Shown: piece after piece, positions 2,521 through 54,651 of the stretch
Layout of the letters: each line of letters starts with the position of its first letter
How positions within the stretch are numbered: the stretch's first letter is position 1
DNA from: Holothuria leucospilota
Taxonomy: Eukaryota
Assembly (NCBI GenBank): GCA_029531755.1
Contig: CM055977.1
Coordinates: 30,302,229-30,366,228, forward strand
Direction of reading: 5' to 3'
DNA: 64,000 nt
Made by a program: the position numbers and the translations under genes
Notes under the pieces: generated by a model
What the model was told of the DNA's origin: nothing
The model's database searches: none
The model's input: the letters and a program-made list of their open reading frames with translations, nothing else

Positions 2521-3080
2521 GTTCGTTCATAGAAAGACAAAACCGTTTAGCCTATTTATAGTTTAGGCGCCTTTTGTTTTTTGCGAGATCTTTTTGAAAC
2601 TTCTGATGCAAAACAACTATACTAAGCATCAGATTTCCGAATAATCCGACCTGTGGTGCCATGTTAGACTGTCCTTTGTGACCAAAACGCCAAAGCCATG
2701 TCTCCAAATAAGCTTCAATCTAAACGAATTTGTTTCCTTAAATTATCATTTTTTTATTTAGCAATTCCGATCATCATAGATGATTGAGCTGTTTGTTCGG
2801 TGAGATTAGCAAGGCGGAAATTGTCAACAAGATTGTATCATTCATGGTCTTTCGACCAACATACTGAGTCAAAAACTCAAGGATGACTTTTGACATCAGT
2901 ATACAAGTACACCATTAAAGTAATATAGCCTACATAAAGTACCACCACACACCACATTTTTCAGTACGCCCTCAATTGAGAGAGGGATGGTTTATGCATC
3001 AATTAAAATTAAAGGTGACTTTTTGTTGATTGCAAGTGCGTATCTCAAATTTCGTGCTTCTTCAAATTTCATACAGTACC

Positions 3081-3348
3081 AGGCGCTTAACCAGAAATTT
3101 GTCAGAGGGTGGGGGCGAAGTCTGTGGGCAAACTATCTAAGCGTAGCGCCATCATTGGTTGTCGTGAAGCGGAAAATACCTCCCAGATCTCTGGAAATGC
3201 CACTTCCCAGGCCTTGTAAGTTGCATCTAAACATTTTTTATTTTGAGTTATACTGGCAATATCATAAAAAAAATCATTAAAAATACCAAAAACATGCTCA
3301 AGAGGGGAAGGCGGGTGCCCTCTTCGCCCCCCCCCCCGGCTACGCGCC
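3081..3348 (+). mobile_element. MITE copy of the core-containing family (~270 bp), ending ...GGCTACGCGCC
   Basis: Near-colinear with 29412-29688 across the core, the block GCATCTAAACATTTTTTATTTTGAGTTA..GCAATATCATAAAAAA, a C-rich run and the terminal GGCTACGCGCC. Confidence 0.8.
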
Positions 3349-4564: not shown

Positions 4565-4668
4565 AGTCAGTCAGTCAGCCAGCCAGTCAGTCAGTCAGCC
4601 AGCCAGTCAGTCAGTCAGTCAGCCAGCCAGTCAGCCACCCTGTCAGCTAACCAGCCAGGCAGCCAGTC
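4565..4668. repeat. (CAGT/CAGC)n tetranucleotide microsatellite
   Basis: GTCAGTCAGTCAGCCAGCCAGTCAG... repeats over ~100 bp. This explains the ORF at 4560-4754 with its ASQSVSQP periodicity. Confidence 0.95.
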
Positions 4669-6753: not shown

Positions 6754-6912
6754 CAGGGGCGGATCCAGGATTTCTGAAAAGGGGGAGCCGAAGTTGTTCG
6801 ACCTGTGATTGACAGTACTATACCATCTAAGCGGAGCGCCACCATCGGTTGGCGCGGAGCGTACAAGAAAATTTTTGACAAAATAGACCTCCCAGATCGC
6901 CGGAAATAGCAC
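6754..6912 (+). repeat. partial copy of the MITE core with a GGGGCGGATCCAGGATTT-type head
   Basis: GGGGCGGATCCAGGATTTCTGAAAAGGGGGAGCC is followed by CTAAGCGGAGCGCCACCATCGGTTGGCGCGGAGCG...CCTCCCAGATCGCCGGAAATAGCACTTCCCATG. The same GGGGCGGATCCAGGATTT head recurs at 14613-14632 and, reverse-complemented, near 10318-10340. Confidence 0.65.
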
Positions 6913-7771
6913 TTCCCATGTATTATTTTTGCATTTTCTGCTTTATATAATTTCATGTCTCAACTCTTAACACATTAATTTTTCCACAAGTTATTAACAG
7001 AAGACAGTTATCATAGGCACAGTGCCTTACTACAATGCATCCTGTTCAAGACGTCTAATCAGATCTTTAGTAGTCATGTTCTTAATTGGTGAATATTGAG
7101 GGACTTCCTTGAGAAATTTGTGACCCATATCTTAGTTCGACTTGATGCCAGGACCCAGGTACCTTGCATTGACATGTGGGCGTAAATGTACGTTTTATCA
7201 CGTGCATGTTCCCCTCTGCCTAATTTCTTGTTTTGCGTGGACTCAGTGAGAAAGTGTAAATGACCCAAAATGCACGAGACTTGGCAGCCCTGTCATTGTT
7301 TTGGGGTACGTCCAGGTAGAGTGATCATGGTGTTATTGTAGGCCTTACATAGTATCAAAACTGAATGACCGAATTGTAATGATTCCGACCACTATATTTC
7401 TAAACAAAATTTTGTTGGTGACGTGCACTGTAGGCCAATCTTAACATCTTTCAGACAAAAATCGAGGGATTAATTAACTGACAGAACAGCATTTTGCCAT
7501 TTAGTTTGTCATTGATTATGGTTATACTTGTTGATTGCTGATTTTTACTTAATTTATAATTCCTCACTTTTCTCCTTAGGAATTTATTTATGGAGGGACG
7601 TCTCCTCACTGAAAATTTTAGGGAGGGACGTGTCCTCCCCCCCCCCCGTTCCCCCGCTCCCGCCGCCTATGCGTAGCATACCAGATAAATTGGGTAAAGC
7701 ACATCCCAGATAGCCGGAAAAGACACTTTTTAAGGCCTTGTAATTCGCATGATTTTCCATTTTAATTCTCT

Positions 7772-8099
7772 TGCAGTGGCGTAGCTAGGATTTTTGTTTG
7801 GGGGCGGGTCTCCCGTTTACTATCTAAGCGGAGCGCCACCATAAGTTGGCGCGGAGCGTACCAAGAAAATTTGAGATTTTAATACCTCCCAGATCGCCGG
7901 AAATGGCACTTGCCAGGCTTGAAAATTTTTGAAAAATTAGGGTTCCTTACATGCAGTCTGGTGCCACATATGCTACCTTTTGAAGTAAAATTTGTGTTAA
8001 AAAATTTACGTATTTTTAGGAACTAAAAAAAAAATCGGCATCAGTGGGGGGGGGGGGGAGGGCATGGCCCAATGACCTCCCCCAGTGCACGCCACTGCA
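7772..8099. mobile_element. MITE (328 bp) with an 11-bp perfect TIR TGCAGTGGCGT...ACGCCACTGCA and a conserved internal core
   Basis: The termini TGCAGTGGCGTAGCTAGG and CAGTGCACGCCACTGCA are reverse complements of each other. The interior carries the family core CTATCTAAGCGGAGCGCCACC..GGTTGGCGCGGAGCG...CCTCCCAGATCGCCGGAAATGGCACTTGCCAG and a G13 run. Confidence 0.8.
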
Positions 8100-8212
8100 T
8101 TTACTATCTAAGCGGAGTGCCACTATAGGTTGGCGCGGAGCGTTGCAAGAAAATTTGAGGTTTTAATACATCCCAGATGGCCGGAAATGGCACTTGCCAG
8201 GCTTGATAGCAG
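8100..8212 (+). repeat. partial second copy of the MITE core, immediately abutting the 7772-8099 element
   Basis: TTTACTATCTAAGCGGAGTGCCACTATAGGTTGGCGCGGAGCGTTGCAAGAAAATTTGAGGTTTTAATACATCCCAGATGGCCGGAAATGGCACTTGCCAGGCTTGA. It is about 90% identical to 7826-7925. Confidence 0.75.
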
Positions 8213-8567
8213 CCCATCTCAACTGATGCGCACTGTCTCGTAAGGTATTTTTCGATTGGCTGATGGTATTGTATCAGTATTGTATCGTATTGATTGTACC
8301 CAATCGTGTAGTAAGACAGCATGCGTGTGAAAGTCCCAATCGACGTTCAAACTGACCTGCTGTACGCTATGACTCCCATGCTTCGAGGTTGCTAATTGCA
8401 GCTTCATTCTCTATCACTCCACTCTCTGTCCTTCTCTCTATCTCTTCTCCTTTCCGTTTTCTTCTCTCTTTTTTCCCTTTCATTTTTTTTTTTTTTTTGC
8501 ATTTTTAAAAAGGGGGGCCGGGGCCGGGTCGGCCCCCCTAGATCCGCCCATGCTTTTCTGAAAAACA

Positions 8568-8622
8568 CAGGCATATCTCCAACCTCTTTAGGGGCCTCGA
8601 ATCGATATGGGATCTTTCAGTC
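8568..8622 (+). repeat. short dispersed repeat (family B), second copy inverted at 34392-34440
   Basis: AGGGGCCTCGAATCGATATGGGATCTTTCAG matches the reverse complement of CTGAAAGATCCCATATTGATGCGAGGTCCCC. Both copies generate a spurious ...YGIFQS... ORF. Confidence 0.55.
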
Positions 8623-11600
8623 TACTGTAATTTGTAGCATGATATGTGGAAGGTTGAAAGTACGTATTTGCCTTTATACATTTTACAAAATGTTTTTCCT
8701 AGCGCTTCGCGAGCAGCCATTACCGGTATAGATGGTGATTGTTAATACACTTACGACGAAAAAAGCATTCTGAACCAGCTTGTTAGTCCTCCACCCCTTT
8801 TGCTGTAGGCCTACCTATGTCTAATGTCACCTTCCTGCACTCATTCTCTCCCTACCTCAGATTCCCCATTGCTGGAAGATGTTCGTCTGGATTTTCGTTC
8901 AGACTTCGTTGTAAAGCGATCGTTGTAAAGTGCTCGGCGTCATACTCTATATTATCATTTGGATGCCAGGTAATAAGCATCATGTCATTGCCACATTTTA
9001 TATAATTAATCCAGAGCTTCCAGGAGGCCTTATACGGGTGTCTGTAAGCCTTAGATACCCTTTTATAATGCACAATTAAGCAAAGGAAAATTTTCGTAAT
9101 AGTCCAAGAATGTTTCTGTGGACTCCACGCGAGTATTTTTGCGTAAAAACTTTCCCCGAACAAAAGTCAGGAAAGTAGCCAAAAGGGGGTCTTCAAGAGG
9201 TTTGTTGACAACACACCCTTCTCTTAGATAACATAATCTCTTTCACCTAACAAAAATTAATTCACTAAGTTATGGACATTTTTCCAGCCATATATGATCA
9301 GTTCCAAAAATATCCCAAAGATAGTACCATTTTGCATGTAAACAACCTTAAATTAACAAAAATTTCTCAAAGGGGGAGGGACCCCTCCCCTTAGATCCCT
9401 CCCCCCGGACAGCACCTTTTTGTAGTGACAAAGTTAGGATCCCCATCTGCTGTATAAAATCGCAGGGACGCATAAAAAAGGTACAATTACGCAGACTTGG
9501 AGGGGGTCACCAAATCCTCCCGGCGCCCCTGTAAATAACAATTAAGTATCATCCATGATATTTCAAAATTAAACATCATTCACTGTTGCTGATGTTTTAT
9601 TAAGGTACCATCCCTTAAATCTGACAGTGAAACATGATTTGGAAACGGTTTTTCAAGATTTCTTTGCAGGGTTGCGAGTATGTACGAAATGCCATTTGGG
9701 CGAAATGTGCCTTAAAATCGGACAAACGGACAAACATTTGCCTGTTTGTCAAATCCGATTAGTCAAAGACAAAATAGCAAAACTTTTCTAAGGGGTTATG
9801 TAACCTGTTTACGAAGTGACAAAATATCGAAAACCAGTTATTTCAGCATTTATATAAGCATTGTTGAGAAGCCTTATACATGATAATACTCCAACATTGT
9901 CAGTCTCATATCGATCAAAAACAGCCAAAACCATGTTTGGGTGATATCGTTAAAAATGTTTGCCACCAAACCGGTTCTAAAAATACCAAATTTGCTATCT
10001 TGGTTAGTAATAGTAAGGGCAACCCTGTTTTGTACTGCAAGGTGAAAATCAAGTTTTAGCAACCAGACGCGGAGCCAAATGGGGACTATGCCGGCTCCAG
10101 CCACCCCTCCCCCCCCCCCTTTCGGCACCACTTCCTTTTTTTAGACTGTCTCAAAGCTGCTGTACAATTTGTATGCTTATTTTGATTGTCAAATGCCAGG
10201 GAATACCATATATAAGTGTCTAAATTTTTACTTTTTGCCCTAGACACCTCCCCCATCGAGGCTTCGTACACTTGACGCTCGTAGGTGCGAGCTTTGCCCT
10301 CATGGATTTACCCCCCTTTTCTGTGAAATCCTGGATCCGCTCCTGCAGGTATCTTTCTATTCTCCATAAGTAAAAGCTGTACAACATTAGTATTGCCAAT
10401 GTATTGTATTGTATTTGTACTGTATTGAGAAAGATTTCCACAATAATATATACATACTTATGTTACAATATTTACATTAATACTTAATTGTGGGGCAGGT
10501 CTGAAAAAAGCTTAAAAGCTTGTACAAGCAGACTTCCATTTTAAGGGTACCATAAGGGTACAGAAGAAAATGTCACTTCTTTAAGAGGTGTCGTACCCCT
10601 GAAGGCCCGGGGAGTCCCTGCCCCCTCATTTTCAAGGATAAAGGTTCACTGGTATCAAAAGAGAGAGAGGTGTTAAAGTCCCGGAAGAGGAAGAGGAAGA
10701 AAGGAATATGGAAACCTGTTGGACCTCGCATCTAAGGCGCTTCGGCTAACGGTTCAAACACTCAAATGGCGGCCCCTCCCCCAAAATTTTGAGGAGGATG
10801 AGCTCCTTGACTTCGTAGTGCATGTATGTTGCTCTTCTTTACTTTATCATGAAACAAAATTTCTCTGTAGATCGAGCTTACTTGATCGAAACATCGACCT
10901 GTTGAAACTGTTCAAGACAGTTCCTGCTTCCTCTACAGCAATGTTGTCTGGGTACTTCTCGATAAATCTCACTTTCCCTCCAGCTCGTAACTCCTTTTGT
11001 GAGCACTTTCAGGTCTTCCCCTATAGCTGGTGACAGTCCGCAGGAATTTTCTTACTGTAACCATTTTTCACGTAATTAAACTTCGTCTGTTCTGTAGGCA
11101 GGTTCTATAGAATTTTCTTTAAAAAAAACATAGGAAAATGTGCAACAGCTAAGATTGGAATCTTGAAAAATCTCTACTCACAGCACGACGTAAGAATTTA
11201 ACCACCAGGCAGGGTCCATGACTAGAGCCTGGTGTCGAGAGGTCTGGCGCCTGTACGTCATTGTTGAGAACGTCGTGCATAGGAGGCCTTCAACTCTAAA
11301 GTACTTGCTAAATCAACGATAGTAATTGACATGTAGAAAAGACTGCAGACGTCACCAGTCTTAAGATCTAAAATCTCGTGGAGATAAATGATGTTACCCC
11401 CAGACTGCCTTTGAATTTTTCAAGGTTTCAAGGTATAGGCTTATACGTTGTTACAAATAGCCTATTGACGAACGAACTGAAGTCTTAGATTCCGTAGGCA
11501 AATGTTTCCATTAAGTCAATTATAAAATATTATCTTGGCTATTAAAATATTTTGTTTTTCTGGCTTATAACACACTTCTTTTAGTGGTATTAAATGTTGA

Positions 11601-12113: not shown

Positions 12114-12375
12114 GGCGCGTAGTCAAGGGGGCTAAGGGGGCAGCCGCCCCCCTTGAGCATATATTTGGTATTTTTTAATGTTTATTTTTACAATGTTGCT
12201 GGTGTTCCCCCTATTTATTTGCGGTAAATAGGCCTGGGAAGTGCCATTTCCAACGATCTGGGAGGCATTTTGGGCCAAAATTTTCTTGAGCTTTGCGCCA
12301 ACCCATGGGTGGCGCGAAGCGTTGAGAGTCTGTCTATGGGCTTGCCCCCCTCCCTGAAAAATTTCTGGCTACGCC
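12114..12375 (-). mobile_element. MITE copy of the same family, opposite orientation
   Basis: It begins GGCGCGTAGTCAAGGGGGCTAAGGGGGCAGCCGCCCCCCTTGAGCATATATTTGGTATTTT. This is the reverse complement of the 3' end of the 29412-29688 copy. It contains GGGAAGTGCCATTTCCAACGATCTGGGAGG and ends ...CTGGCTACGCC. Confidence 0.8.
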
Positions 12376-15300
12376 CCCTGGGTACGGGCACGAGGTCATG
12401 AGTACTGGTGTGGGTGCTAGGCCCTGGTATGGGTGCTGGACCAAAGACAACTGAACCTTGAGTACCAGGTACCGGCCTCAGTTCGTGACTATATAGAAAC
12501 AGGGGCTCGAGTACGGACTACGGGTACGTCAACACTAGAACCTATACAGCCAGGTTATGGCACAGTGTGGTCCCGTTGACGGCTCACATCCGGCGCCTGG
12601 GCCAATGGGAGTTTTCAGTTTGCACTCAAAAGCTAATATCCTGCCATACAAAATTACTCCAAGCTGTGATACAAACACTGCATATTTGTCGACTTCGCTT
12701 TGCGGTCGAGAAAGGGGGTTAATGTCCGATGTTCGTGAAGCGTTCGAAGTGGATCGCAACCTACGAAAATGGCATCGTCTGAGGTGGGCCTCCTTTGACC
12801 ATGTGGAATTGTTTTTATTCCAGCCAGCCTTTTTTATTTTTTCGTGATTGATTTAGGAACCTTTTAAAGAGACTATTCTGTCTTTTTATTGCGAACTTGT
12901 CACAAAACGGATTGATTTGTGAACAATTAAAGTTTGAAAACCAAGCTATTGCAAACAGTTAAACTGTTGTTTTTTTACGGAACAAGCTTTTTAAAGTCCT
13001 TAATGTTTTTGTAATCTGAATGAAGAATCTGACTCAATTTCGTGATGGGAAAAGGGCGGTGAAGAGTTCAATCTTGACCGACGAATGGAACTTTATAAGT
13101 TTCAGTTACAAATTAGAAACACACCTCAGGCCGTCCTCTGCTATAACACACATGGTCACAAGCAAACTTGGCAATATATTTAATCATTTCGGGTATTTTC
13201 AGCAAACAAAATATCCAGTTTTTTTACGTACGGATAGCCGCCCATCTAATACACCCTCACCTGAGAAATAGGTATATGACGTTACTGGACTTGTTCAAGA
13301 GCTCGTTGTATCGCAATTGTATGTAGGTTCTTGGGGAGTACTTTGTTTAGACGAAGGTAAGTTCTGTCCATTGCATATTTAATTGTGCAAAATACCATCT
13401 GGTATAGGCTACTCACATAGACTTTATTTCACTTATAGCCCTAGTCGAAAATTGACCTCATAAGGCCTTCTCATAATATTTTAGTTGCTTTAAAATATAA
13501 ATGAACTTTACATGGCATGGACGTAGTATGTATGGTCAGTCTGGGGTATGAACAGACCTTCGAAGGAAAGTTTTAAGCAAAGAAACATTTGGCATGTAAA
13601 TTTGTTATGGAATTATGTGCACTGGAAAAAAATTCAAAAGGGCGGAAAGTGTTCGCCCTGAAATTTTCTCAACTGGCAAACAATTGTTCCATGAATTTTC
13701 TCCTTAAAACGACCATTTTTGCTCTGAAATCTATACTTTTTTGCTCAAGAAGATGTTGCCTCCTACCCAGATCCCCTGCTAATCATTAGTCTATGTAAAT
13801 ATTCACATCACCTGCTATGAAGTCGAATAGACTTTTACACGTAAAACAAGTTGGAACTGAACCATGGGAGAAATCGTTTCCAAGCGAGGGAGCATCTCTC
13901 TTGCCCTTTGAGAACAATGTGTCGGGAACTGCACAAAACAAGGCAGTTCATCAAGACGAAGATGAGTTGTCACCAGGCTCATATAACAAAGCTAGATTCT
14001 TGTCGGGTTACGGTGTAGGCTATTTAACGACGTTAAACCAGTACGTTAGGTTACGTTTGATTCACCTGATCCACATTTTATTTTCATCCACTTCCAATTG
14101 CATGTTATCGGTTTCTTTTGATCCCAACACCTACATGCCTCGTAAGCAAGATTCTGATCATTATCCGTCAATCACAATCTAAGGCAAAATACTAATTTTT
14201 GTAAAAACCTTTAACATTCCTTTAGTCACAAATTTCTAATTTTAAATAATTTGATGAAAGGACGTGTCTTTGATTTGACGGAAAGCACCTGGCTCGTTAT
14301 GTCTGAATTTTCGATAGTATTGAAAACGCTTCATTATAATTGTAATTTTCCTGTTTAATTATTCAGCAGTGTGAGAGGGTGAATAACGTAAAAGTATTTT
14401 AAGTTGGCACGTCCCCACCATACATTTTAAACTCCATACATGAAAAACACCTTAAAATGATCAAAAACAGGAAAAACACCTTAAAATGATCAAAAGCAGA
14501 AAAAAAAAACGAGAAAACATGTTCAAGAATAACAGAAGTCGACGAAAACAACAGTGTTGAACCGATAAGCCTATCAAAATTCGGTGATATCGGTATAGTG
14601 GGTCGATTTCTGGGGCGGATCCAGGATTTTGCCATATGGGAAGGGGGCATACGAGTTCAAAACGGACCTTTACCTCACCCACATCGCTTGGGGTAGATGT
14701 TAGAGGGTGAAAAGTTAGCAACCCAACCCCTAGATTTTAACAATCCATCACATAAGCAAAATTCATCACTACAGTTCTGCGTCTTCCACGCGTGGGCCCC
14801 AGTATTCAGTGGAAGGGGGTGCCCAATCAGGACTCATGGAAGGCAGCCACCCCATGGCCTCATTTAAAATCTGACGGTGGTCGATATTCATCATATAAGC
14901 CTTTTAGTCTAATTTTAAATGTACCTCTAAAATTTACTCATGACGATGATTCGACGTCGCTGAAATGGTCAAGTGTTACTTTCCTAGTAGTTTTACCTAT
15001 AGAGGTTCTTCACTGACGTCACAAATACATGTGACAACAACAAAGTCAGCCATATTGGACGTCATACTTATCGCGCGCAACATGTATGATGTGTACAAAA
15101 AGTATTCATTTGGTCAATGGTTAAAATGTGTAGTTCATTCTTTGTAAAGAATGTTTCTCGATGATAGCTAAAGTTCGTATTCGTCAAGGAAATCACAGGG
15201 CCGAAGTTTTATTATCGATTTCCAACAAATGTACAAGATGGGCTTCTGAAATTCTTTATATGTACACCTCTACATGTGACGTCACACAACTGGGATTGCC

Positions 15301-22870: not shown

Positions 22871-24686
22871 TGAACCTATACGAAGTCCGCAATTCCCTCC
22901 AACCAAAAAGTTTTAACAACTAATTAAATTTTAAAGTTATATTTATCTACTTTTATTATTCGAGCATCTCAAATGTTGTCATAGACCAGACCCATCCAAC
23001 CCCACCTCCGACCAATGAGCAGCCATCTACTAAGGTTTTTCTTATCTGCTTATCGGGTTTCATTTCCCAAAGAAACATGTGTCAAGGGAGAAGGCTTGGC
23101 CACAGCTTACCTATCCGTTCAAACATCCTTTTATCTATTTAGTAACTGTTTATCGCTGATACGGTTTTATTTTTCTGACATTCTTCGATTGAGATGTTCA
23201 ACTCAGTTTTATTGTGCGCTTCTCTTCATTCAAGGGATGAGCCTCTTGTGAGGGCTTTTAACGACTTTTTCATCGAAGACAAAGAGATCGTTGCAGATTA
23301 TTTAACCACACTCCGTCGGTGCAATTAGTGTCCATTCTCACCGAGTGTTATCTTCGACACTTCACTTCTTAGAGAAAAGAGAAAGCCTCTTTTCAACTTC
23401 ACACTTAGAGCTGAGTTTGCTCTAAAGAGCGATCGAAGACACTCCGGAAATATTTGCTTGGGGTCTCCTAATCAAAAAGAATAATTCTTTTCACTTGAGG
23501 CTAGAGAAAACAGATAAAAACTCCCCCTCCCCCTTTTTTCAATTGTCTATCGTAGTCTCTTTGTTAAGTATTTGCTCAAGTGTTCCTGGAGTACCTCATT
23601 AATGGTCAATACAGGGCCGAAATGTATATGTTTGTAAATGTCAGTGACAGAATCGTCTAGATGGGCAAATCGGGTCATTTAAGTGACATCTTCTTTATTG
23701 GAAATCTAAAGGCTCGTTCTTCAGGGGGAAGCAATCGCCTTCCAATGTAATAAGTTCGTTTTATTACGCAATACTTCAATACGACAGATAAAGTTGTTTC
23801 TAATCCTTGCACTAATAAATCTTTCGCAAATACAGTTAAGAAAATTTTGCTCCTTTTCTCTCGGTAAAGGTAACTTGTTGTGTCTTTACAAACAAGCTAA
23901 AAAGTACAAATTGCATGACACAAGGACCACAGGAAATTTGTAGCATTAGCCGACAAAATGTATAGCCTACACAAATTGTATAAAAATTGGTATGAACCTA
24001 CAAAATTTTCTGTAGTGTTTGGCGACATAATCTGCATATAAGTGCAAGGAAATCAAAGGAATTTAAAGTGTACCTAAAGTCTGAAAATTCAAAAATATAT
24101 ATTACAGAGCATGAAAACTGAATTCCAATGGTCCAATTCCCATCTTCACAGGACTTTCTTAAGCTGAGATATAAAATGTTGAAGTTTATTTACTCGATTG
24201 AAAAAGGTAGATTGCGCAATAATTTATGATGTCATTGTTGTACTACTCAAATTACAATCTTTGTATTTCTTTGTTTTTCTGAAAGCCACCGCACCTTGTG
24301 CCAAAATGTGATCGCGTTCTTACTGCTTTGGGGTGACTTGACTATATAAGCCCTCTCTGTACAGCATGTCATGCAAGAAAACAGGAAGCGGTCAAGGTCA
24401 TATAAACATTTTTAATTTTAAAAGAAAACAAAGCATTTAATATGAGTTGTACAACAAGAATGTCAAAAATTATTGCGCAATGAACTGTTTGGATTTAAGT
24501 GAATAAATTTTAACATTTAATATCTCAGCAATGGAATAAGCTATGACAATGGGAGTTGGACCAATAAGATTAATTTTGTAACCTCTAAAATATATATTTT
24601 TGAATTTTTAGACTTTAGGTCCACTTTAAGCTAGGGCCTTCGTAGTGAGGCTTACTTTTAGGCGTAAAATTCACTAAATTTTGTGT

Positions 24687-28234: not shown

Positions 28235-29060
28235 GAAGTATTTTAGGACCATTTTTATTTACCGTCTACATAGATGATCCCCCTAGGACATTGCCCGACA
28301 CCAAAGATGATACTATACCGTAGTTGATGACACGACTCTCCACATAGCAGGCAATAATTGTTATTCATGCAATATATCGCTTACAATCTGCAATTGATGG
28401 GCTATTGAAATGGCTTGAAACAAATTGCATTGAGCGTAGATAAAACTAAACTCATGTTTTTTTTTTTGTTTTTTTTTTGTTTTTTTGTTTTTTTGTTTTT
28501 GTTTTTTTTTTTTTTTTTTGATCCACCAAAAAACTAAACCTCGTTAAAACAGATGAAGTCAATGTTCTGTTAAAGGAAAAACGTTAGAGGTTTTTAATTC
28601 TGCTAAGAAATTAGGAATGCGTAAAGATTCACAACTAAAATTTCATAAACATGTTGAAAGTTTAACTCAAAAGATATGAGGTATAAAAATCAGTTTTCTA
28701 CGTAGTCATCAGGTTAGTTTGATTGGACGCCATTACCCGAAGTAGAAAACGATTGCAAGATGATGTATAAATGTATGAATGATCAAGTACCTTACTACCA
28801 ACAATATTTACCCTACAAGCCAACGGACAGGTAAAACTTTAATGCTACCACAGTGATAATGTAGGACAAGCTTGTACAAGAAGTCTTTTATTTTTTGAGG
28901 AACCAAACTATGGAATAGTCCAGATCCTAGAGCAAGACCTTAAGTGCTATAAATTCCTTTCCACCTTCAGACATAAATTAAAACTAACGCAGGTCTTGAC
29001 CTTGTTAACTCAACGTTTTTACTCATTTAGTTTTTCTCATTGCTTCTACATTTTACGTAA
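28235..29060 (+). mobile_element. CR1/L2-like LINE, C-terminal RT and 3' end, same orientation as 25690-26175 (probably the same 5'-truncated copy, interrupted by insertions)
   Basis: The frames read GPFLFTVYIDDPP (GPLLF.IYINDLP motif) and VVDDTTLHIAG (YADDT motif), followed by the segment ...AKKLGMRKDSQLKFHKHVESLTQKI. A short stretch near the 3' end reads LYKKSFIFRGTKLWNSLPD, typical of CR1-family ORF2 C-termini. The element is decayed and carries a (T/G)n simple-repeat insertion at 28443-28522. Confidence 0.7.
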
Positions 29061-29411: not shown

Positions 29412-29688
29412 CAGGCCCGTCGCCAGAAATTTGCCAAGGGGGGGGGGAGCCTGTAGACAAACTATCTAAGCATAGCGCCACCATAGCTTAGCGCGAAGAG
29501 TACAAAAAAATTTGGCCGGAAATACCTCCCAGATTGCTGGAAATGGCACTTCCCAGACCTTGTGAGCCTTGCATCTAAACATTTTTTTATTTTTGAGTTA
29601 CTAGCAATATCATAAAAAATCATTAAAAAAATACCAAAAATATGCTCAAGGGGGGGGGGCTGCCCCCTTCGCCCCTTGGCTACGCGCC
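29412..29688 (+). mobile_element. MITE copy of the same family
   Basis: About 85-90% identical to 3081-3348 over its whole length. The terminus GGCTACGCGCCCG and an internal G10 run are present. Confidence 0.8.
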
Positions 29689-30164: not shown

Positions 30165-31562
30165 GTATAAATCATGTTGATTGGCTCGCTCGTATGGAAA
30201 GCCGTTTTAACATTTAATCAGGAATTTTAGATATCTTGAATTAATTTTAGATATCTCAAATTCTATTTCAGATATCTCGAAATGAATTTTAGATATCTTA
30301 AAATAATTGCAGATATCTTAAAATAATTGCAGATATCTTAAAATAATTGCAGATATCTCGAAATAATCACGAATTTCAGATGTCTAAAATTCTAATTCAG
30401 ATATCTCTTATTCAATTTTAGATATCTCGAATTCTATTTCAGATATCTCGAATTCAATTTTAGATATCTCGAATTCTATTATGGATATCTCGAATTCAAT
30501 TTTAGATATCTCAAATTCTATTTCAGATATCTCGAATTCAATTTTAGATATCTCGAATTCCATTCCAGATATCTTGAATTCTATTTCAGATATCTTGAAT
30601 TCAATTTTAGATAACTCGAATTCTATTTTAGATATCTTCAATTCTATTTCAGATATCTCGAATTCTATTCCAGATATCTCGAATTCAATTTTAGATATCT
30701 CGAATTCAATTTTAGATATCTCGAATTCTATTTTAGATATCTCGAATTCAATTTCAGATATCTCGAATTCAATTTTAGATATCTCGAATTCAATTTTAGA
30801 TATCTCGAATTCAATTTTAGATATCTCGAATTGAATTTCAGATATCTCGAATTCAATTTTAGATATCTCGAATTCAATTCCAGATATCTCGAATTCAATT
30901 TTAGATATCTCGAATTCAATTTCAGATATCTCGAATTCAATTTTAGATATCTCGATTTCAATTTCAGATATCTCGAATTCAATTTTAGATATCTCGAATT
31001 CAATTTCAGATATCTCGAATTCAATTTCAGATATCTCGAATTCAATTTCAGATATCTCGAATTCAATTTTAGATATCTCGAAATCTATTTTAGATATCTC
31101 GAATTGTATTTCAGATATCTCGAATTCAATTTTAGATATCTCGAATTCAATTTTAGATATCTCGAATTCTATTTTAGATATCTCGAATTCAATTTTAGAT
31201 ATCTCTAATTCTATTTCAGATATCTCGAATTCAATTTTAGATATCTAAAATTCTATTTTAGATATCTCGAATTCTATTTTAGATATCTCGAATTCTATTT
31301 CAGATATCTCGAATTCTATTTTAGATATCTCGAATTCTATTTCAGATATCTCGAATTCAATTTAAGATATCTCGAATTCTATTTCAGATATCTCGAATTC
31401 AATTTAAGATATCTCGAAATGAATTTTAGATATCTTAAATTGTATTTCAGATATCTAAAATAGTGCATAATTTGAGATATCTAAAATTAATTCGAGATAT
31501 CTAAAATTCCTGATTAAATGTTAAAACGGCTTTCCATACGCTCGAGCTTCCATGATAAATTC
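30165..31562. mobile_element. foldback-like non-autonomous element: long terminal inverted repeats flanking a 21-bp satellite array
   Basis: The left end is ...TCATGTTGATTGGCTCGCTCGTATGGAAAGCCGTTTTAACATTTAATCAGGAATT. The right end is its reverse complement, AATTCCTGATTAAATGTTAAAACGGCTTTCCATACGCTCGAGCTTCCATGA. The inverted match continues into the first two satellite units at each end. Confidence 0.75.
30226..31505. repeat. tandem satellite, 21-bp unit AGATATCTCGAATTCAATTTT / AGATATCTCGAATTCTATTTC, ~60 copies
   Basis: Direct tandem repetition is visible across ~1.28 kb. Each unit contains the palindrome AGATATCT and a GAATTC site. The long ORFs at 30408-31208 on both strands are artefacts of this periodicity. 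Confidence 0.95.
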
Positions 31563-34500
31563 AAAAATTCAAAAGTCACTGAAATCACCAACACACCAAC
31601 TAAAAGGATTTCTCATTTCTCTTTAAACTGCTGAAGTGGTAGGGGATGGTGTGTGGCTGTATTTCTCATCTGTCAAAAGATGAAGTGCCGCTGTTATCAA
31701 TAAAATAGAATCGAGGAATCTTCAGTTAACTCCCTGAGAGCGAATTTGCTTGAACATCAGACCCTCAATGGGAGGTACTTGAAGCCAAACAGCGGTCACA
31801 TCGGGAAATAGATTAGATCCTCATTTTATTTATGTCAAAAGATCGCCTTAAGAGGTTACCTATTGAGCCAAACTAAACCTTCACACCACACAACTATAGG
31901 ACCTGTCAATCAAACCCTTTAAGTGCCCCATCGTTCCTCCTCCCAAGTGGGGAGTTTACTGTCTCGAATCAAAGTTTGTCATCCGCTTTCGAAGTACAAG
32001 AAAACTGTCAATAAGGACAAAGCATCTCAAGAGGCTATTGTGAAGATTAGTTGTAAGGTAAGCCACAGGTAAACAGGACCAGGCCAGGTATTTGAGCGTC
32101 TTTCTTTATTTACTTTGAAGAATCCAGAGAACAGGATTCGGGTGTGAATTCACTATTGAGGGTCCTGATTACGCTCAATTATTCACTCATCGTGAAGAGT
32201 AGGCCCTAATGAAGTTGTTGGTTGCTTTCTGACACTTATTGTCCATTTCATCCGGAATGTTCTTACCTGCGGGGTCCAATTGAGAAGGATGTACCTTGCC
32301 TTTTGGACCAGCAGGGGTCCCTTGTACTTTTGTGTTCCCTGGCTTAGTTGGATATCGTGTCCTATTCATCGATATTTTAATTGGGGACATCCAGGTGGGT
32401 TCGAGAGCGAAAAATTAGTAAGATTTCATCAACTTGCATTTCTGTGTTGGTGTTTTTCCTACGAAGATACCTGGCAATATTACATGCTTACAGAGCCGTC
32501 CGGTGAAATAAAACGCTCACTTTAGATCACCCACCGTGTTGTAGCAAATAATTAGGTGACACAAAGACAGCTTCAGGGTGTAGCACGACTAACTAGGGCT
32601 TCTCAACTCTTCACGACTTTCAGCAATAATACCAGAGTTGCGTGTCATTCACAAAAGTAATGTTTTGGATCAATTCAAAGTGTTAATAGGTCTCAACGGA
32701 AGAGAACGCCCATAGTCACCCTACGCCTAGACTTTCATTTCACTATTGCAAAGTAAATTGCATTTGTATAACTTGAAACACAAAATCTTTCGGAGTTTGA
32801 TGAAAATGGTGGTTTGGAATGCCTAAGGTATTTTAAACAAACTTTTGCTAAATTTGATGTAGGGTGGTTTCTGTTGCTACAGAAACTGAGACAATAAATG
32901 ACTGATATAAAAGTATCAAGTTCGATGGGCGTCTGAGGACTGAATTCATTACGGTTAAACAAACATTTCTTTTCATATGTTACCCTAAGAACCAACCGAC
33001 GTTAACATGCGAAATTCAAGAAATTTCAAGAAGAGTGGAAACACTGCTGGAGAGTGACTGCAGCTTCTGTTCGAGGAATTTTCCCGCCATAATAGCACCT
33101 CTATCTCCAATTGGTTTTTTCTACACTGCTCACGCCCATACCCAGGGGCGTAGATTTCTTTTCTACTCTGGGGGGGGGATGTGGTGAACTATCGCAAATG
33201 TGGAAAATGTGCACGCGAAGCGTGCACGGCGAGCGCCAAGCGCGAGCCCATGACGGATGGGGTCCAGGGACCCGCCTTAGGGCCCCTGGTAGGGTCCAGG
33301 GGCAAAGCCCCCGGAAGCTCCTGGGTTTTAATGTCTCACAAGTGCCAGAAAGACTGTTTTAAGGGGTTAATTTCAGTGGTAATGTTCTTTGGTAGGCTAT
33401 TGGTATATTCATACATTTAGGAAATGCTATTTTGAGCACAAAACTCGTTGATAAGCTGCACTGGATTGACATTGTACAAGAGCAACAATGTCCTGTTAAG
33501 CTTAAAAAGGCAGGGATCAACATATAGGGTCATCCCAGACAACTGGATTTTGAATTCGGAGATCATTACAAGAACTGCAAGTTGGCTTGAGATCAGTGGC
33601 GTCGCCAGGTTTTTTGTGAATTAGGGGCACCATAGATGATGTCGTAATAATACCTCAGTTCTCCCAAGTCTGCGAAAATTACACCTTTATTTTTCACGCG
33701 TTCCTGCACTTGCATGCAGCAGTTTTGATCTTTCGTTTGTCACTGCATAAAGGTGTCGTCCTGGGGAAGGGGTCCCCTCTCCTTTAAGAATTTGTTTTAT
33801 TAATTTAAGGTCTTTTAGATGCAAAATGGTGCTCTCTTTGGGATGTTTTTGGAACTGATCATATATGGCCGGAAAATGTCCATAATTTAGTAAATGCTAA
33901 TTTTTGGTAAGGTAAAAGAGGAGAATATGTTGTCTATTAAGAGACAGATACGTTGTCAACAAATCTCCTGAAGCCCCCTCCCTTCTGTCTATTTTACTGC
34001 CTTCTGTTTCGGGAAAGTTTTGCACAAACTATGTGCATGGAGTCCACAGAAACATTCTTGAGTTATTACGAAATATGTCCTTTCCTTCATTGTGCATTAT
34101 GAAAGGGCATCTAAGGCTGGCAGATACCTGAAACGAACAGCTGCCAGCAATGGAAAATGAGAGGGAGGGAGAGTAGTATAGGTGCAGGGAGGTGATATTA
34201 GACCTCCCTGATAGGTGTAACAAAAGGGGTGAAGGACTAATAAGAGTGTTACAGAATGCTGTTTTCGTCATAAGTGTATTAACAATTACCATACCGATAA
34301 TGGCTCAGCGCGAACTGGCGAAGCTCTGGTAAAAATTTTTGAAAAATGTATAACGGCTGATACTTACTTTCAACCTTCTACATCATGCTACATATTAGAT
34401 TGAAAGATCCCATATTGATGCGAGGTCCCCACAGATGTTTGGATATGTATCTTTGTTCTTCGGAAAGTGTAAGTTGTGATCAGAACAGTTTCGTGTATCA

Positions 34501-38266: not shown

Positions 38267-40518
38267 ATGTATGCAGGCTACATACAGACATAGCTTGAGA
38301 GGAAGGCCACCCCCGATTATGACGTGGGACGTTCACAAACCCAAAGTTTAACTTGTCTACATACGCGACAGCCTAGACTTTGAGAGGTCCGTGGTCCAAT
38401 CGCTCCCCCAGTCACGCCAGTGATACGGTGGTATCATTTTGATTAACCGCAACATCGATTGCCATGTATCTATAATAAGTAATTCAGGTCAACTTTGTTT
38501 TTCTTTTTCACCGAGGTACTACTATATAGCTCCATGATTTTGACCGATACCTTCCGATACCGATACTAAACACTGCGAAACGTTGTAAGAGTGGCCCTTG
38601 GTTCCACAACCCAGTCAATATCGGGTTTACGGGAGCCTGCGTAGCTGGCAGCTGCCCTCTCGGAGTACATCCGATGAAGGTGCCTCCTCTCAACTGAAAC
38701 TCGATGTTGATGCTAACTAGGCTCTGATAGACAACTTAGCTAAGTCGATTGTTAAACTTTGTCTATAGTGAGTGGCCACTCCAGTCAAGAAAAACGATAA
38801 CGGAGGGGGCAGAGAAGGGCCGGATTCCCTTCCACAAAGAATATCTCATTGAGGGGCTCCAAGATTTCTCCAAATTGTGTTGGGGAGGACATGATCTTGA
38901 ACAGAACTAATGCATGGACGATGCCGTAGCGGTGGGTTCCTGGGCCCGCCCAGGGTATTTGGGAAATTGTGGATTCCAGATGTGGTGTAATCTGAGAAAT
39001 TGTCCCACCATTTAAACACATTTTAGCCCATGCATATGAAAGACTAGGCATATGATATGCCACACATTTTAACAAGCCTGTAGCCTTCCTCCCCCTCCCC
39101 CGAAAAATGTTTCCCCCAAAATTACCATTGCGTCAATGCATTTTAGTATATCTAGCCCCTGAAAAAATATTTCGCCCCCTGGAAGCTTTCTTGCCCCCTT
39201 CACTACCTCGTCTGGCCACGAGAACTGGATATTAATAAGGTTTTGGAAAAAGTGGAGGCATGGTCTAAAGCAATATCTCCCACCACTTTGATAGGTGTCT
39301 GTCAACGCCCATGGGAGCCGTGAAGAAAGACGCAAGAACAATTCCATAAGACTGCTATTATGGGGGGGGGGGGGTATTCTCCAAGTAGATTCGACAGACT
39401 AGAAGTTACAACAGCAGAAGATAAATTGAGAAGTAATTATGGTATCTTAGCTGTATATCCATGATCCATCATTGAGATAACCTTCTGTCACTCATTCTTT
39501 ACAGACTAAGAGAGATATCCACGAAATCACGTAGCATGTAGGCGAAATGAAACTTAGTGGAACAGGCACGTTATTGACTGAAATTGATACCAGAGCCTGT
39601 GAATCAACATCAAAGGCACCATTCTCAATTAAACTTACCAAAGTCGAAATTAGTTACCGACCCGTAGTGATCAAACGTAGCATCATGCAACTTGTTGTCG
39701 GAGTGACAAACCATGCCATTTAATAGACGAGTTGGGAAATGTTTCTACGCAATGCACTATGGTAATGGGTCAAAGGTGAAGTGTACCACGCTTACAGTGT
39801 CCCAGCCCGGGTGTTGCATGCTGAGCACGCAGAGCCAAACACGTTGCCGTTGTCATGGTACACTTGACCTTGTGACCCAACCGGAAGTACCGAATTTCCC
39901 AACTCGTCTATCCTCCTCGTATAGGATCAGGGAGCTGGGAGACTGTTTTCCAGCTACCTGGTAGGATGAACAGGATAACAATATTTCTTACCTGGAGAGG
40001 TAAGTGAAATTGTAATCATTTCTCGTAATTATGAGGAAAATAGGCTTTGTAGTGATTCCAGTGTACCTTCAAGGGTATTCTTACCTTCTTTACTTGGCGA
40101 CCTTCGTGTAATTGTATCAAATAATATCGAACAATCACCGTGTCATCGTTGCAGAAATTCATGAGTCTAACATCTTGTAATGTAGTCGCACAACAACTGT
40201 CCGAGGTGACTCCATCATCTTTCTGGGAGCACTAAAGAGCAGGCCTGTAGCCAGCTGACATGGTATTGAAGGGGATGAGATAAGAGTCCAGGGGCGAAAA
40301 AATGCATCAAGGTAATAGAAACGTTTGTTTTTTTCTAGGGGCCCCTAGCGCCCCCACACACCCCATGGCCACGGTCGACCCGGGGCCTGCTAAGATATGC
40401 TGTTCAGTCACATATATCATGAAAATATTCTAGTTTGTCAGTGAAGAATATTGAACAGTCGGCAGGCCCTTTCTCATAATTTTTTAAAGGGTAAATGCGG
40501 TCACCTCAATTAAGTAAG

Positions 40519-40607
40519 AGTGAGTGAGTGAGTGAGTGAGTGAGTGAGTGAGTGAGTGAGTGAGTGAGTGAGTGAGTGAGTGAGTGAGTGAGTGAGTAAG
40601 TACAACT
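40519..40607. repeat. (GAGT)n microsatellite, ~21 units
   Basis: Direct reading. Confidence 0.95.
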
Positions 40608-51774: not shown

Positions 51775-52068
51775 CTATAATTCAGGCCTTGAAGGGGCAG
51801 TTGTTTAACAACGCTAAGTGACCACGGATGTGGGAGAAGCCTATGGCTTATGAATTACAACTTCACGTCGGGTGGCTAACCAACTTAACGATTTAGGTCA
51901 AATCTGGTTACTTTTGAAAGGCCAGTTCAGATGAGAAAACCATGGATTGCTCTTGGATGAAAACCCAGTTTACTTTGGCCCAGCAGAGGATCGAACCCTG
52001 AACCTCCCGGTTGCTAAGCTTCGTCACTTCAATGCCACTGCCTTCATCCACTCAGCCACAGCACTGGT
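51775..52068 (-). mobile_element. tRNA-derived SINE copy (in BUB3 intron 2)
   Basis: The head CCAGTGCTGTGGCTGAGTGG...GGTTCAGGGTTCGATCC carries box A-like and box B-like (GGTTCGATCC) pol III promoter motifs. It is about 80% identical over ~295 bp to the copy at 54354-54651, in the opposite orientation. Confidence 0.7.
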
Positions 52069-54353
52069 TTGTGGTAAATACATCATGGTTGTGGCTATTA
52101 GTACTGGCTAATATCCTGTGTATTTAAGTAATCTATCAGTTTGCCTGAAGCAGTGTTCGCACTAAGGAACTGAAACTGGGACGGAATTCCCTCTCTAAAT
52201 TTTTTTTTGGGCAGGATTTTCAAAATTAAGGCGGGACCTCATGATTTTCAAAATCAAGGCGGGACCTCATCCCTCCCCTAAATTTTTTTGAGCAGGATTT
52301 CCATCGCCATCGCAAAACTACTCCCCATGCTAGCGGTACCACTTGCTGTTAACAGCAGTTAATGCGTGTCACTAGTGCTTCTCTCCAAGTTCAAAGCCTC
52401 CCCACACCCCTCCTCCGATACCTCAGGCTCCAATTCGTCACTTGGTGTTTTCCTTCTGAAGAATGAGTAAGTATAAATCCGTGAACTTGAAGTTGAAGTG
52501 GAAAATATGAATGAACTTCATTGGAGATACACATATGATCAGATATTAACGAGAGCAATGTACGACGTAATAATGAAGAAAGTACATACTGTACATATTC
52601 AATACAACACATGTGAGACTCCACAGTGCACTAGTCTACAGGTGTGTAACCAAACATACTGTACACGATACAACATTGCATTTGCAACCCTGGGACTGTG
52701 ATTGAATTTCAGTCCAATCAGATTCGCTATTATGTAAATACAACCAGCAGACGGTATATAAAAGCTCCACTGTGAATGGCTAGATTACAATGATATATGT
52801 TGCTGCCATAATCAGTGTTCAGCTTGGGAGTTGACATCCGCTTGCTTGGTAACGATTCTATATTGCAATTTATTGTGCCTAGCATAATTGCAATTCCTCA
52901 GTACAATTACAGCTGCGAAGTGCGCAGGAATTTTGGCTGGATTCAGAACATCAGCTGCCCGTTTAAGATTTATTTAGCGAAGAAGGTGTACGGGATTTTC
53001 CCACATTACATTTAATTATGTGCGGGATTCGAAAGACAAAAGCAGGATTCCTGCAATTCCGTGCCTTAGTGCGAAACTGGCCTGAAGTATGGTTGAAGGA
53101 GGTTTAATAGGGTAAACAATTTGGTATTAACCAGCATAGTGGTACTCTTTGGCATCCACAAAAGTCTGCCAATGATAGTCAAAGATTCCTTCAGACAGCC
53201 CAAAAGATTTATTAATATTAAAGAACTTTATCTTAAGAAAGCCTATTGGTCTTATCTTTCTTTAGAGTGGTGCACTGTGTATAGGCCTCAACACAGTTGT
53301 AACAAACAGTGCCAGGGAGGCGTCAAGTTACACCCATCTCCCTGGTGACAAGTAGTGCTTTGCAATGGTAGTAATGCTTCCCTTCTAATAAATATTAAAT
53401 TGACTTCAATATTTAAATGCCTTGTGGCAATGTAAATTAAGTTTCCATCACTTTTCTAAGGCAAATAAAAGTGTTACTGCATGAGATATGATGTAAGGTA
53501 CCATACCAACCTTATATTTCACGTCTTTGTCACTCAATTTTAGGCTCAGTACCACATAACAGAAATTTTCCATTGTGAAAGTTAAGCACATCTCTCTTTT
53601 CACTCACTATTTGCATGACATTTGAAAAGTATGAGAGAACACAATTTAGACAGTTTGCAACCAGGCATAGCCTTTCCTGCTACACTTGGCCTGCAAAACA
53701 TCATAAATGTAAAGCGCAGGTCACACTAGAGTGATTTCAGTTCGATTTTCGTTGGTTTTGGTTAAAATCTTCTCCATCTCTGGTCGGAAAAAGCAAAAAT
53801 TTGCCAACCTGTGTAAATATGTGATTTGCATCAGAGGACTATGAAAATGAAATGTAAACTTATTATTTCATGACGTCACATTGGCAGACAGCTTTTATCG
53901 GGCATGCGTGCAAAAATTGGATTGATATTTTGAATAAATGCCGCTCTGTTGAGCGGTATAAGTTATGGTAGCAGAACAGTATATCGTGAGACAAACTAGG
54001 ATCAGTTATCAATATAGCGTGACCATCCTTACAACAAAGTTTGAATAAAAAGCTATTGGTTCGATTTTGAAAAATTTGGATTGGATTTTGGACTGAAAAT
54101 CACCGTAGTGTGACCAGCCCTTAACCCTTCAGAATGAAAAAGTAAGACTTTTGTGTTCGACAGAACTCACAGAAAATTCAACAAGAGTCGCAGCCCACAG
54201 GCAAGTGGATTTGCTAAGTACAGTATTTACTTAAACCAGAGTTACAACTTTAAAATAAAGTTGGGTGACCCACTCCAGCCTGACACGTGCATTGACTAAT
54301 AAAACCTTGATCAACACTGTTACACTATCTGTAAGACCTGCATATCACACAGA

Positions 54354-54651
54354 CCAGTGCTGTGGCTGAGTGGATAAAGAGGGAAGCATTTGAAGTGATG
54401 AAGCTTAGCAACCAGGAGGTTTGAGGTCAATCTCCACTCCCCATGTGGGTCAAAGTAAAGTGAATTTTTTCATCCAAGAGATTTCTACTGTTTTCTCATC
54501 TGAACTGGCCTTTCAAAAGATACCAAATTTGACTAAATTGTTGAGATGGTTAGCTACCTGACATGAAGTTGTAGTTTATAAGCTACAGGCTTCTTCCAAA
54601 TTTGTGGTTACTTAGTGTCGTAAAACAACTGAGCTTCAAGGCCTGAATTAC
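54354..54651 (+). mobile_element. tRNA-derived SINE copy (in BUB3 intron 2, inverted relative to the first copy)
   Basis: Aligns end to end with the reverse complement of 51775-52068. Shared blocks include TTTTCTCATCTGAACTGGCCTTTCAAAAG and CTTCAAGGCCTGAATTA. Confidence 0.7.

Follow-up and report, generated by a model that had tools for sequence, protein, structure and literature searches.

A probable non-autonomous DNA transposon filled with 21-bp tandem units in the genome of Holothuria leucospilota

Tandem repeats located within transposable elements or their inverted ends have been described in several systems. In DTC84/pearl (bivalves), miDNA4, and Xstir (Xenopus), the copy number of the internal array varies, and these elements have been proposed to be seeds or vehicles of satellite DNA; for DTC84, the palindrome within each repeat was suggested to be a hotspot of length change. 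In the foldback-type elements (FB of Drosophila, TU of sea urchin, Galileo of the P superfamily, Tetris, and Muta1), the repeat number varies between copies or arms, and the arrays can become satellites, as in Tetris. Muta1 is a Mutator-like element (MULE) that has been called a 'type 2 foldback'. Among these, Galileo and Muta1 have repeats that contain transposase-binding sites or make the binding stronger: THAP-domain sites lie within the tandem repeats of the Galileo terminal inverted repeats (TIRs) (PMC3688188), and a larger number of 12-bp subterminal tandem repeats in Muta1 was accompanied by stronger transposase binding and more excision (PMC5499845). Here we describe an element of 1346 bp in a 64,000-nucleotide stretch of Holothuria leucospilota DNA (GenBank assembly GCA_029531755.1, contig CM055977.1, positions 30,302,229 to 30,366,228 of the forward strand), hereafter called the window, in which all coordinates are given. 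The element is probably one inserted copy of a non-autonomous cut-and-paste DNA transposon, the interior of which consists of amplified copies of its own subterminal units. A literature search yielded no description of the element or of its 21-mer, and the genome paper of H. leucospilota, which gives a repeat content of 50.4%, contains nothing on it.

The element extends from 30193 to 31538, without assigned strand, and runs from TATGG to CCATA. The left TIR (30193-30262, plus strand) consists of a 36-bp unique tip, TATGGAAAGCCGTTTTAACATTTAATCAGGAATTTT, followed by subterminal units 1 and 2, whose AGATATCT cores are located at 30229 and 30249. The right TIR (31449-31538, minus strand) consists of units 59-61 in inverted orientation, unit 59 carrying a 5-bp insertion, and of the unique tip ending in ...GGCTTTCCATA. 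When 30193-30262 was compared with the reverse complement of 31469-31538, the match started from the very first base and contained 1 mismatch in 70 bp. A preliminary description of this locus had reported that the inverted match enters the first two satellite units, and this was confirmed. Beyond 70 bp, the match resumed weakly past a 5-bp indel, which is the insertion on the right side, and continued for about two more units, to ~120 bp. The tip sequence of the TIR is TATGGAAAGCCGTTTTAACATTTAATC. The 35-mer GTATGGAAAGCCGTTTTAACATTTAATCAGGAATT was present exactly twice, in inverted orientation, at 30192-30226 and 31505-31539, and was found in 0 of 100 shuffles; no second copy of the TIR was detected elsewhere within the window. 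Both the TIRs and the array described below are far beyond chance.

The outermost bases of the two TIRs are directly adjoined by the same six nucleotides, CGCTCG, at 30187-30192 and 31539-31544, which form a perfect target-site duplication (TSD). With the two boundaries fixed, the empirical probability that all six nucleotides match directly (6/6) was ~4-8e-4 in this window, and a GC-rich word such as CGCTCG is rarer still, given that the DNA is 39% G+C. When one copy of CGCTCG and the element were removed, the reconstructed empty site was GGCT-CGCTCG-AGCT, in which a 12-bp near-palindrome (GCTCG CT CGAGC) is centred on the duplicated 6 bp. As reconstructed from the sequence, this is the geometry expected of a symmetric staggered cut. 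A chromosome lacking the insertion is predicted to read ...TTGATTGGCT CGCTCG AGCTTCCATGATAAAT..., with one CGCTCG only.

The space between the TIRs is filled with tandem units. According to Tandem Repeats Finder, the array has a 21-bp period, spans 30223-31456, and comprises 58.7 copies with 88% matches and the consensus AATTTTAGATATCTCGAATTC. Sixty-one AGATATCT cores with no more than 1 mismatch were found at a spacing of 20-21 bp, save for two gaps of 26-27 bp. Inside the element lay 58 of the 59 exact AGATATCT sites of the window, and the 1 site outside compares with ~1.9 expected by chance; a further copy of the 21-mer was not found in the rest of the window. In the preliminary description, a palindrome and a GAATTC site had been assigned to every 21-mer. 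The palindrome was indeed present in the form of these 61 cores, and GAATTC was found in 39 of the ~61 units.

A unit table anchored on the cores, together with calls of spacer orientation, divided the interior into two parts. In the first part (30263-30398, plus strand) lie variants of the left-arm repeats: the remainder of unit 2 is followed by unit 3, by three copies of a 20-bp variant, AGATATCTTAAAATAATTGC, at 30291-30350, and by the irregular units 7-8. The second part (30399-31448, plus strand) is a homogeneous array of 50 units of exactly 21 bp with the consensus AGATATCTCGAATTCAATTTT. The spacers of 49 of these 50 units score as having the orientation of the left arm, the last one (unit 58) scoring weakly as reversed, so that spacers 9-57 share one orientation. 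The 8-bp core was conserved at 398 of 400 positions across the 50 regular units, and most of the variation fell on unit positions 16 (A/T) and 21 (T/C) and on the CpG of positions 9-10. Identity between neighbouring units was 0.94 in the centre of the array vs 0.87-0.89 at its edges, and was slightly higher for units two apart (0.921) than for units one apart (0.906), indicating a partial two-unit periodicity. The uniform centre, the divergent edges, the two-unit periodicity, and the single orientation fit amplification in place accompanied by homogenisation. Furthermore, unit 2 of the left TIR (AGATATCTCAAATTCTATTTC) differs from an abundant array unit by a single CpG-to-CpA change, and units 3 and 57 are identical in sequence. 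With regard to CpG, the observed/expected ratio outside the element was 0.64 vs 1.00 for GpC, suggesting germline methylation; CG was kept in 44 of the 50 array units despite this depletion, which is consistent with a young or unmethylated array.

The same TIR module was found at a second locus. A scan with the TIR core identified one contig from a JGI metagenome (Ga0056115_1010448, 5.7 kb; hereafter L004), which shares with the window the TIR module alone (64 bp at ~80%) and whose flanks are unrelated to those at both ends in the window; the JGI sample did not turn up in the literature either. Positions 4649-4676 of L004 were identical to the element tip at 28 of 28 positions, and this identity began exactly at window position 30193. 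Within ~120 bp of the tip, L004 has one TGATATCA core and three AGATATCT cores, the first two cores being spaced 20 bp apart, which is also their spacing in the window. L004 contains no tandem array; ~58 units in the window copy compare with 4 dispersed cores in what appears to be a solo end, probably from another species. Since L004 has cores at equal spacing and no array, we consider the 21-mer to be native to the element and the array to be a local expansion. The case raised in the preliminary description, in which the TIR occurs only here, does not apply, as the same tip is present in an unrelated context. A second TIR was not detected in L004 within 3 mismatches or by BLAST with short words, and the locus resembles a solo TIR located upstream of a gene whose exons are immunoglobulin-like (weak Pfam matches). 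At 4677-4720 of L004, 20 nt past the tip, a weak facing stretch resembling the TIR core, AAAGTAGTATTAACATTT, was observed; its p value by shuffling was ~0.05, which is marginal, and it may be a second, decayed end. Scans of bacterial and archaeal genomes with the TIR core gave 2 matches, which is the chance level, and scans of viral contigs with the TIR and the two-unit array pattern gave 0 matches.

The element is non-coding and intergenic, ~15 kb from the gene BUB3, and has no coding capacity beyond frames made by the repeat. The long open frames inside it are artefacts of the 21-bp (7-codon) period. A Pfam search of the window's longest open frames gave no match. With the 278-amino-acid EFEISKI frame as query, an exhaustive HMMER search yielded only coiled-coil or other heptad-repeat proteins that are unrelated and at most 51% identical, and a chimeric peptide of four frames of the array had zero matches among 5.8 billion proteins. 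Remnants of a transposase were found neither in the window nor in L004, using tblastn with six IS3EU transposase cores (supplement of PMC10045372) and Pfam. No Rfam family or tRNA was detected anywhere in the window. The region 30173-31554, which is wider than the element, is ~26% G+C.

Taken together, the anatomy, the TSD, the second locus, and the absence of coding frames suggest how the element could have arisen. A transposase of the family would bind the AGATATCT palindromes, as candidate sites, in the 20-21-bp subterminal units; this role of the units is proposed by analogy with Muta1 and Galileo. The element itself would need a transposase supplied in trans. Before or after the insertion, slippage or unequal exchange among the left-arm units, as the array structure suggests, would have produced ~50 phased 21-bp copies that fill the interior. 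A period of 21 bp corresponds to two helical turns and would set all the sites on one face of the helix.

We compared the TSD and the termini with those of known superfamilies. Tc1/mariner (TA), piggyBac/Kolobok (TTAA), and PIF (3 bp) were rejected on TSD or termini, Transib (5 bp), P (7-8 bp), and MULE/FB (8-10 bp) on TSD length, and Polinton (AG..CT) and Ginger2 (TG..CA) on termini. Dada transposons have 6-7-bp TSDs and insert into multicopy small-RNA genes; as described above, no such gene was detected in the window. IS3EU elements have TA..TA termini and usually 6-bp TSDs (PMC10045372), and GingerRoot elements prefer 6-bp GC-rich TSDs and have TA termini, long TIRs, and frequent solo TIRs, with a length of 3.9-12.9 kb (PMC6839031; PMC10045372). 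The superfamily has an integrase-related DDE transposase (Pfam rva_4/rve-like, PF24764) and is found in marine invertebrates, including acorn worm, oysters, and cnidarians. The insertion studied here has a perfect 6-bp TSD and termini of TATGG and CCATA, the same tip being present in L004; its TIRs match over 70 bp with 1 mismatch and to ~120 bp past the indel, as compared with ~100-150 bp in IS3EU/GingerRoot. On these sequence signatures, we give the assignment to the IS3EU/GingerRoot superfamily about an even chance of being right.

Two loci with IS3EU-type transposases, L012 and L013, were used for comparison. L012 had no TIRs that span the locus. In L013, an ENA contig with an rva_4 transposase fragment, an apparent TATGG tip was rejected as a link to IS3EU, as it is not the true end of L013. 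Inverted arrays of 22-26-bp repeats were observed in L013 at 9083-9424 and 10420-10854 (~14 and 17 copies); they flank ~1 kb in a foldback-like arrangement and lie inside or beside the IS3EU copy.

Several observations weigh against the interpretation as an IS3EU-like cut-and-paste transposon with amplified subterminal units. It is based on one complete copy and one solo end only, and the length of the TSD rests on a single insertion. CGCTCG is nearly palindromic, so that a 4/6 inverted match would be an alternative reading of part of it. This TIR is linked to no autonomous partner or transposase, and the TIRs of L013 showed no similarity to it (p = 0.6-0.9). Furthermore, subgroups of hAT as well as Dada also make occasional 6-bp TSDs, and AGATATCT is a putative protein-binding site. 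Finally, the flanking DNA contains a mirrored pair of words, ATAAAT-CATG at 30167-30176 and CATG-ATAAAT at 31551-31560, which lie 11 and 7 nt outside the CGCTCG duplication, outside both the perfect TIR and the homology with L004. The interpretation given here does not account for this pair, which could have arisen by chance in the AT-rich flanks or be a vestige of an older event or insertion with a 6-bp TSD.

A TIR transposon that belongs to another superfamily, for example a hAT subgroup with a short TSD or an undescribed group, is a possible though less probable explanation. The hAT and P elements are well known for short, repeated binding motifs in their subterminal regions and for palindromic target sites, and no transposase evidence ties the TIR to IS3EU. 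However, the 6-bp TSD combined with TA..TA is the published signature of IS3EU/GingerRoot, hAT elements typically have 8-bp TSDs and short TIRs, and Dada targets small-RNA genes, none of which was found in the window.

A wider proposal starts from the assumption that the assignment to IS3EU/GingerRoot is correct. The ends of this superfamily would then consist of a unique TA-tip followed by phased palindromic AGATATCT sites, and the present copy, in which these sites were amplified ~30-fold, would act as a high-avidity 'sponge' that competes for the transposase of the family, or seed a TIR-less 21-bp satellite in holothurians. We consider this proposal rather improbable.

Another explanation is that a MITE (miniature inverted-repeat transposable element) took up a pre-existing 21-bp satellite of the host, as proposed for miDNA4, and now disperses it. 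The capture of tandem repeats has been proposed for a Xenopus MITE (review PMC12628747), and the preliminary description had considered a satellite amplified inside a mobile vehicle. However, both TIRs contain the unit, in inverted orientation, and the array-free L004 has equal cores at equal spacing next to the same tip. There is also no other copy of the 21-mer in the window. Capture is thus less likely than the amplification of the element's own subterminal repeats, and we consider it very unlikely.

With regard to the boundaries, the element could alternatively extend from the CATG at 30173 to the CATG at 31554, with ATAAAT as the TSD and the outer 16-20 bp as a decayed portion of the TIR. 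In favour of this, ATAAAT is perfectly repeated in direct orientation and adjoins a 4-nt inverted match, and at fixed boundaries its 6/6 match is just as improbable. However, a comparison of the two 16-20-nt stretches that separate each CATG from the TATGG or CCATA tip shows a 4-nt indel and several mismatches, whereas the next 70 bp contain just 1 mismatch; judging from the sequence, uniform decay after insertion cannot explain this contrast. The identity with L004 ends exactly at 30193 and not at the CATG. Because CGCTCG nearly equals its reverse complement, a partial inverted likeness, GCTCG..CG, is seen outside the tips; it is better read as a perfect direct repeat of a near-palindromic word. 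Moreover, a common 6-mer in two AT-rich flanks of 30 nt is not rare (~0.4 expected, from the per-pair rate). We therefore moved the ends of the element inward to 30193 and 31538, based on the divergence of the outer flanks, the CGCTCG direct repeat, and the start of the L004 identity; the wider boundaries are highly unlikely. In the preliminary description, the left end had been taken to be the reverse complement of the right end. Its first 20 nt (CATGTTGATTGGCTCGCTCG) are not the reverse complement of CATGGAAGCTCGAGCG; these 20 nt consist of flanking DNA and the TSD. The ends and the TSD proposed there, with ATAAAT/CATG outside CGCTCG, were accordingly misplaced by 20 and 16 bp. The proposal of a TIR-bounded mobile element with a body of 21-bp units was thus upheld as to the array, the TIRs, a perfect TSD, and the non-coding nature, and corrected as to the boundaries.

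It is also conceivable that the host has co-opted the array as a phased cluster of ~60 palindromic protein-binding sites, putatively with a regulatory, architectural, or heterochromatin-nucleating function. The core is almost invariant (398/400) while the spacers vary, the period equals two helical turns, and CpG is retained in 44 of 50 units in a CpG-depleted genome (observed/expected 0.64). However, recent amplification with homogenisation predicts equal conservation of the core, and the locus is intergenic, ~15 kb from BUB3; we consider co-option extremely unlikely. Finally, a local minisatellite with no mobile element, whose flanks were inverted by a small rearrangement or by palindrome formation, is hardly credible even though a near-palindromic unit and a region that is ~74% self-complementary are prone to local inversion or hairpin-mediated rearrangement, since 36-bp non-repeat tips are inverted at both ends, a perfect 6-bp direct repeat lies outside them, and the same tip is found in an unrelated context in L004.

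The window contains several other features. BUB3 is complete on the minus strand (56018-46637), with six GT-AG exons at 56018-55821, 55425-55356, 51624-51473, 50409-50146, 48949-48777, and 46763-46637; its product of 327 amino acids is identical to KAJ8025970.1 of H. leucospilota. A separate element of ~570 bp at 24063-24629, unrelated to the 21-bp element, has inverted arms of ~210 bp that are 76% identical and ends that read TTAAAGTG... and ...CACTTTAA; it may be a TTAA-flanked MITE of the piggyBac or Kolobok type. A dispersed repeat family of ~270 bp with G-run/C-run ends (GGGGGGGG...CCCCC) was found at 3080-3348, 12114-12377, and 29412-29688, with partial copies at 6821-6918, 7816-7922, and 8100-8206; one copy of the family lies 500 bp upstream of the 21-bp element. 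Inverted pairs of dispersed repeats, 76-80% identical, were observed at 8555-9500 vs 33664-34466 and at 51778-52073 vs 54348-54650, the latter pair being within BUB3 introns. The microsatellites (AGTC)n, (GAGT)n, and (TA)27 and long T-runs are located at 4565-4634, 40518-40601, 824-877, and 28457-28520.

The route from transposable element to satellite and the construction of TIRs from repeats are already established, and the present element adds no new mechanism. It provides a worked example in an echinoderm, in which a transposon's own subterminal repeats have grown into a minisatellite within the element. If the assignment to IS3EU/GingerRoot holds, it would further provide a candidate binding motif and an end architecture for a superfamily called 'largely unexplored' (PMC11934779). 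The preliminary description had placed the architecture outside the known classes. This was not supported, as the structure of the element groups it with tandem-repeat-containing MITEs (DTC84, miDNA4, and Xstir) and with foldback-type elements that have TIRs of subterminal repeats (Tetris, Galileo, and Muta1).

Like DTC84/pearl, miDNA4, and Xstir, the element is short and non-autonomous, with inverted ends, a TSD, and an internal tandem array, and its length of 1346 bp, its lack of coding sequence, its TIRs, and its 6-bp TSD are those of a tandem-repeat MITE. The arrays of these elements differ in that copies are few (no more than 5 in DTC84) and the units are long and distinct from the inverted repeats, whereas ~58 copies of a 21-bp unit are present here and the unit itself is part of the TIR. 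They also belong to other superfamilies, with AA or TA TSDs.

With the foldback-type elements (FB, Galileo, Tetris, Muta1, and TU), the element shares long TIRs that hold short tandem repeats, and both of its arms carry 20-21-bp units beside a unique tip. The contrast with foldback elements drawn in the preliminary description did not hold, since the unit is itself an imperfect 20-bp palindrome, AATTnnAGATATCTnnAATT, and the array is for this reason ~74% self-complementary (over 520 nt). A single strand is predicted to fold back, with a terminal stem of >70 bp and a minimum free energy of -285 kcal/mol (calculated with no shuffle control), and the element could thus fold back over its whole length. 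In contrast to foldback-type elements, its arms are very unequal (~57-58 units vs 3), a middle domain is absent, the TSD measures 6 bp instead of 7-10 bp, and the palindromic unit blurs the orientation of the arms.

The TA termini, the 6-bp TSD (here 5/6 G+C), the long TIRs, and the occurrence of a solo TIR, as L004 appears to be, are likenesses to IS3EU/GingerRoot. On the other hand, the element is 1.35 kb and non-coding, no transposase was found in the window or L004, and the IS3EU/GingerRoot literature examined describes no interior that consists entirely of amplified subterminal repeats. Closest in this respect is HSymIS3EUlR of Hydractinia symbiolongicarpus, which is derived from IS3EU and shows internal tandem repetition and genome expansion (PMC11934779). 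Its unit is 182 bp, its accumulation at putative centromeres reaches the megabase scale, and it accounts for 4% of the genome (PMC11934779), whereas the element described here is a single euchromatic copy of 1.3 kb built from a 21-bp unit.

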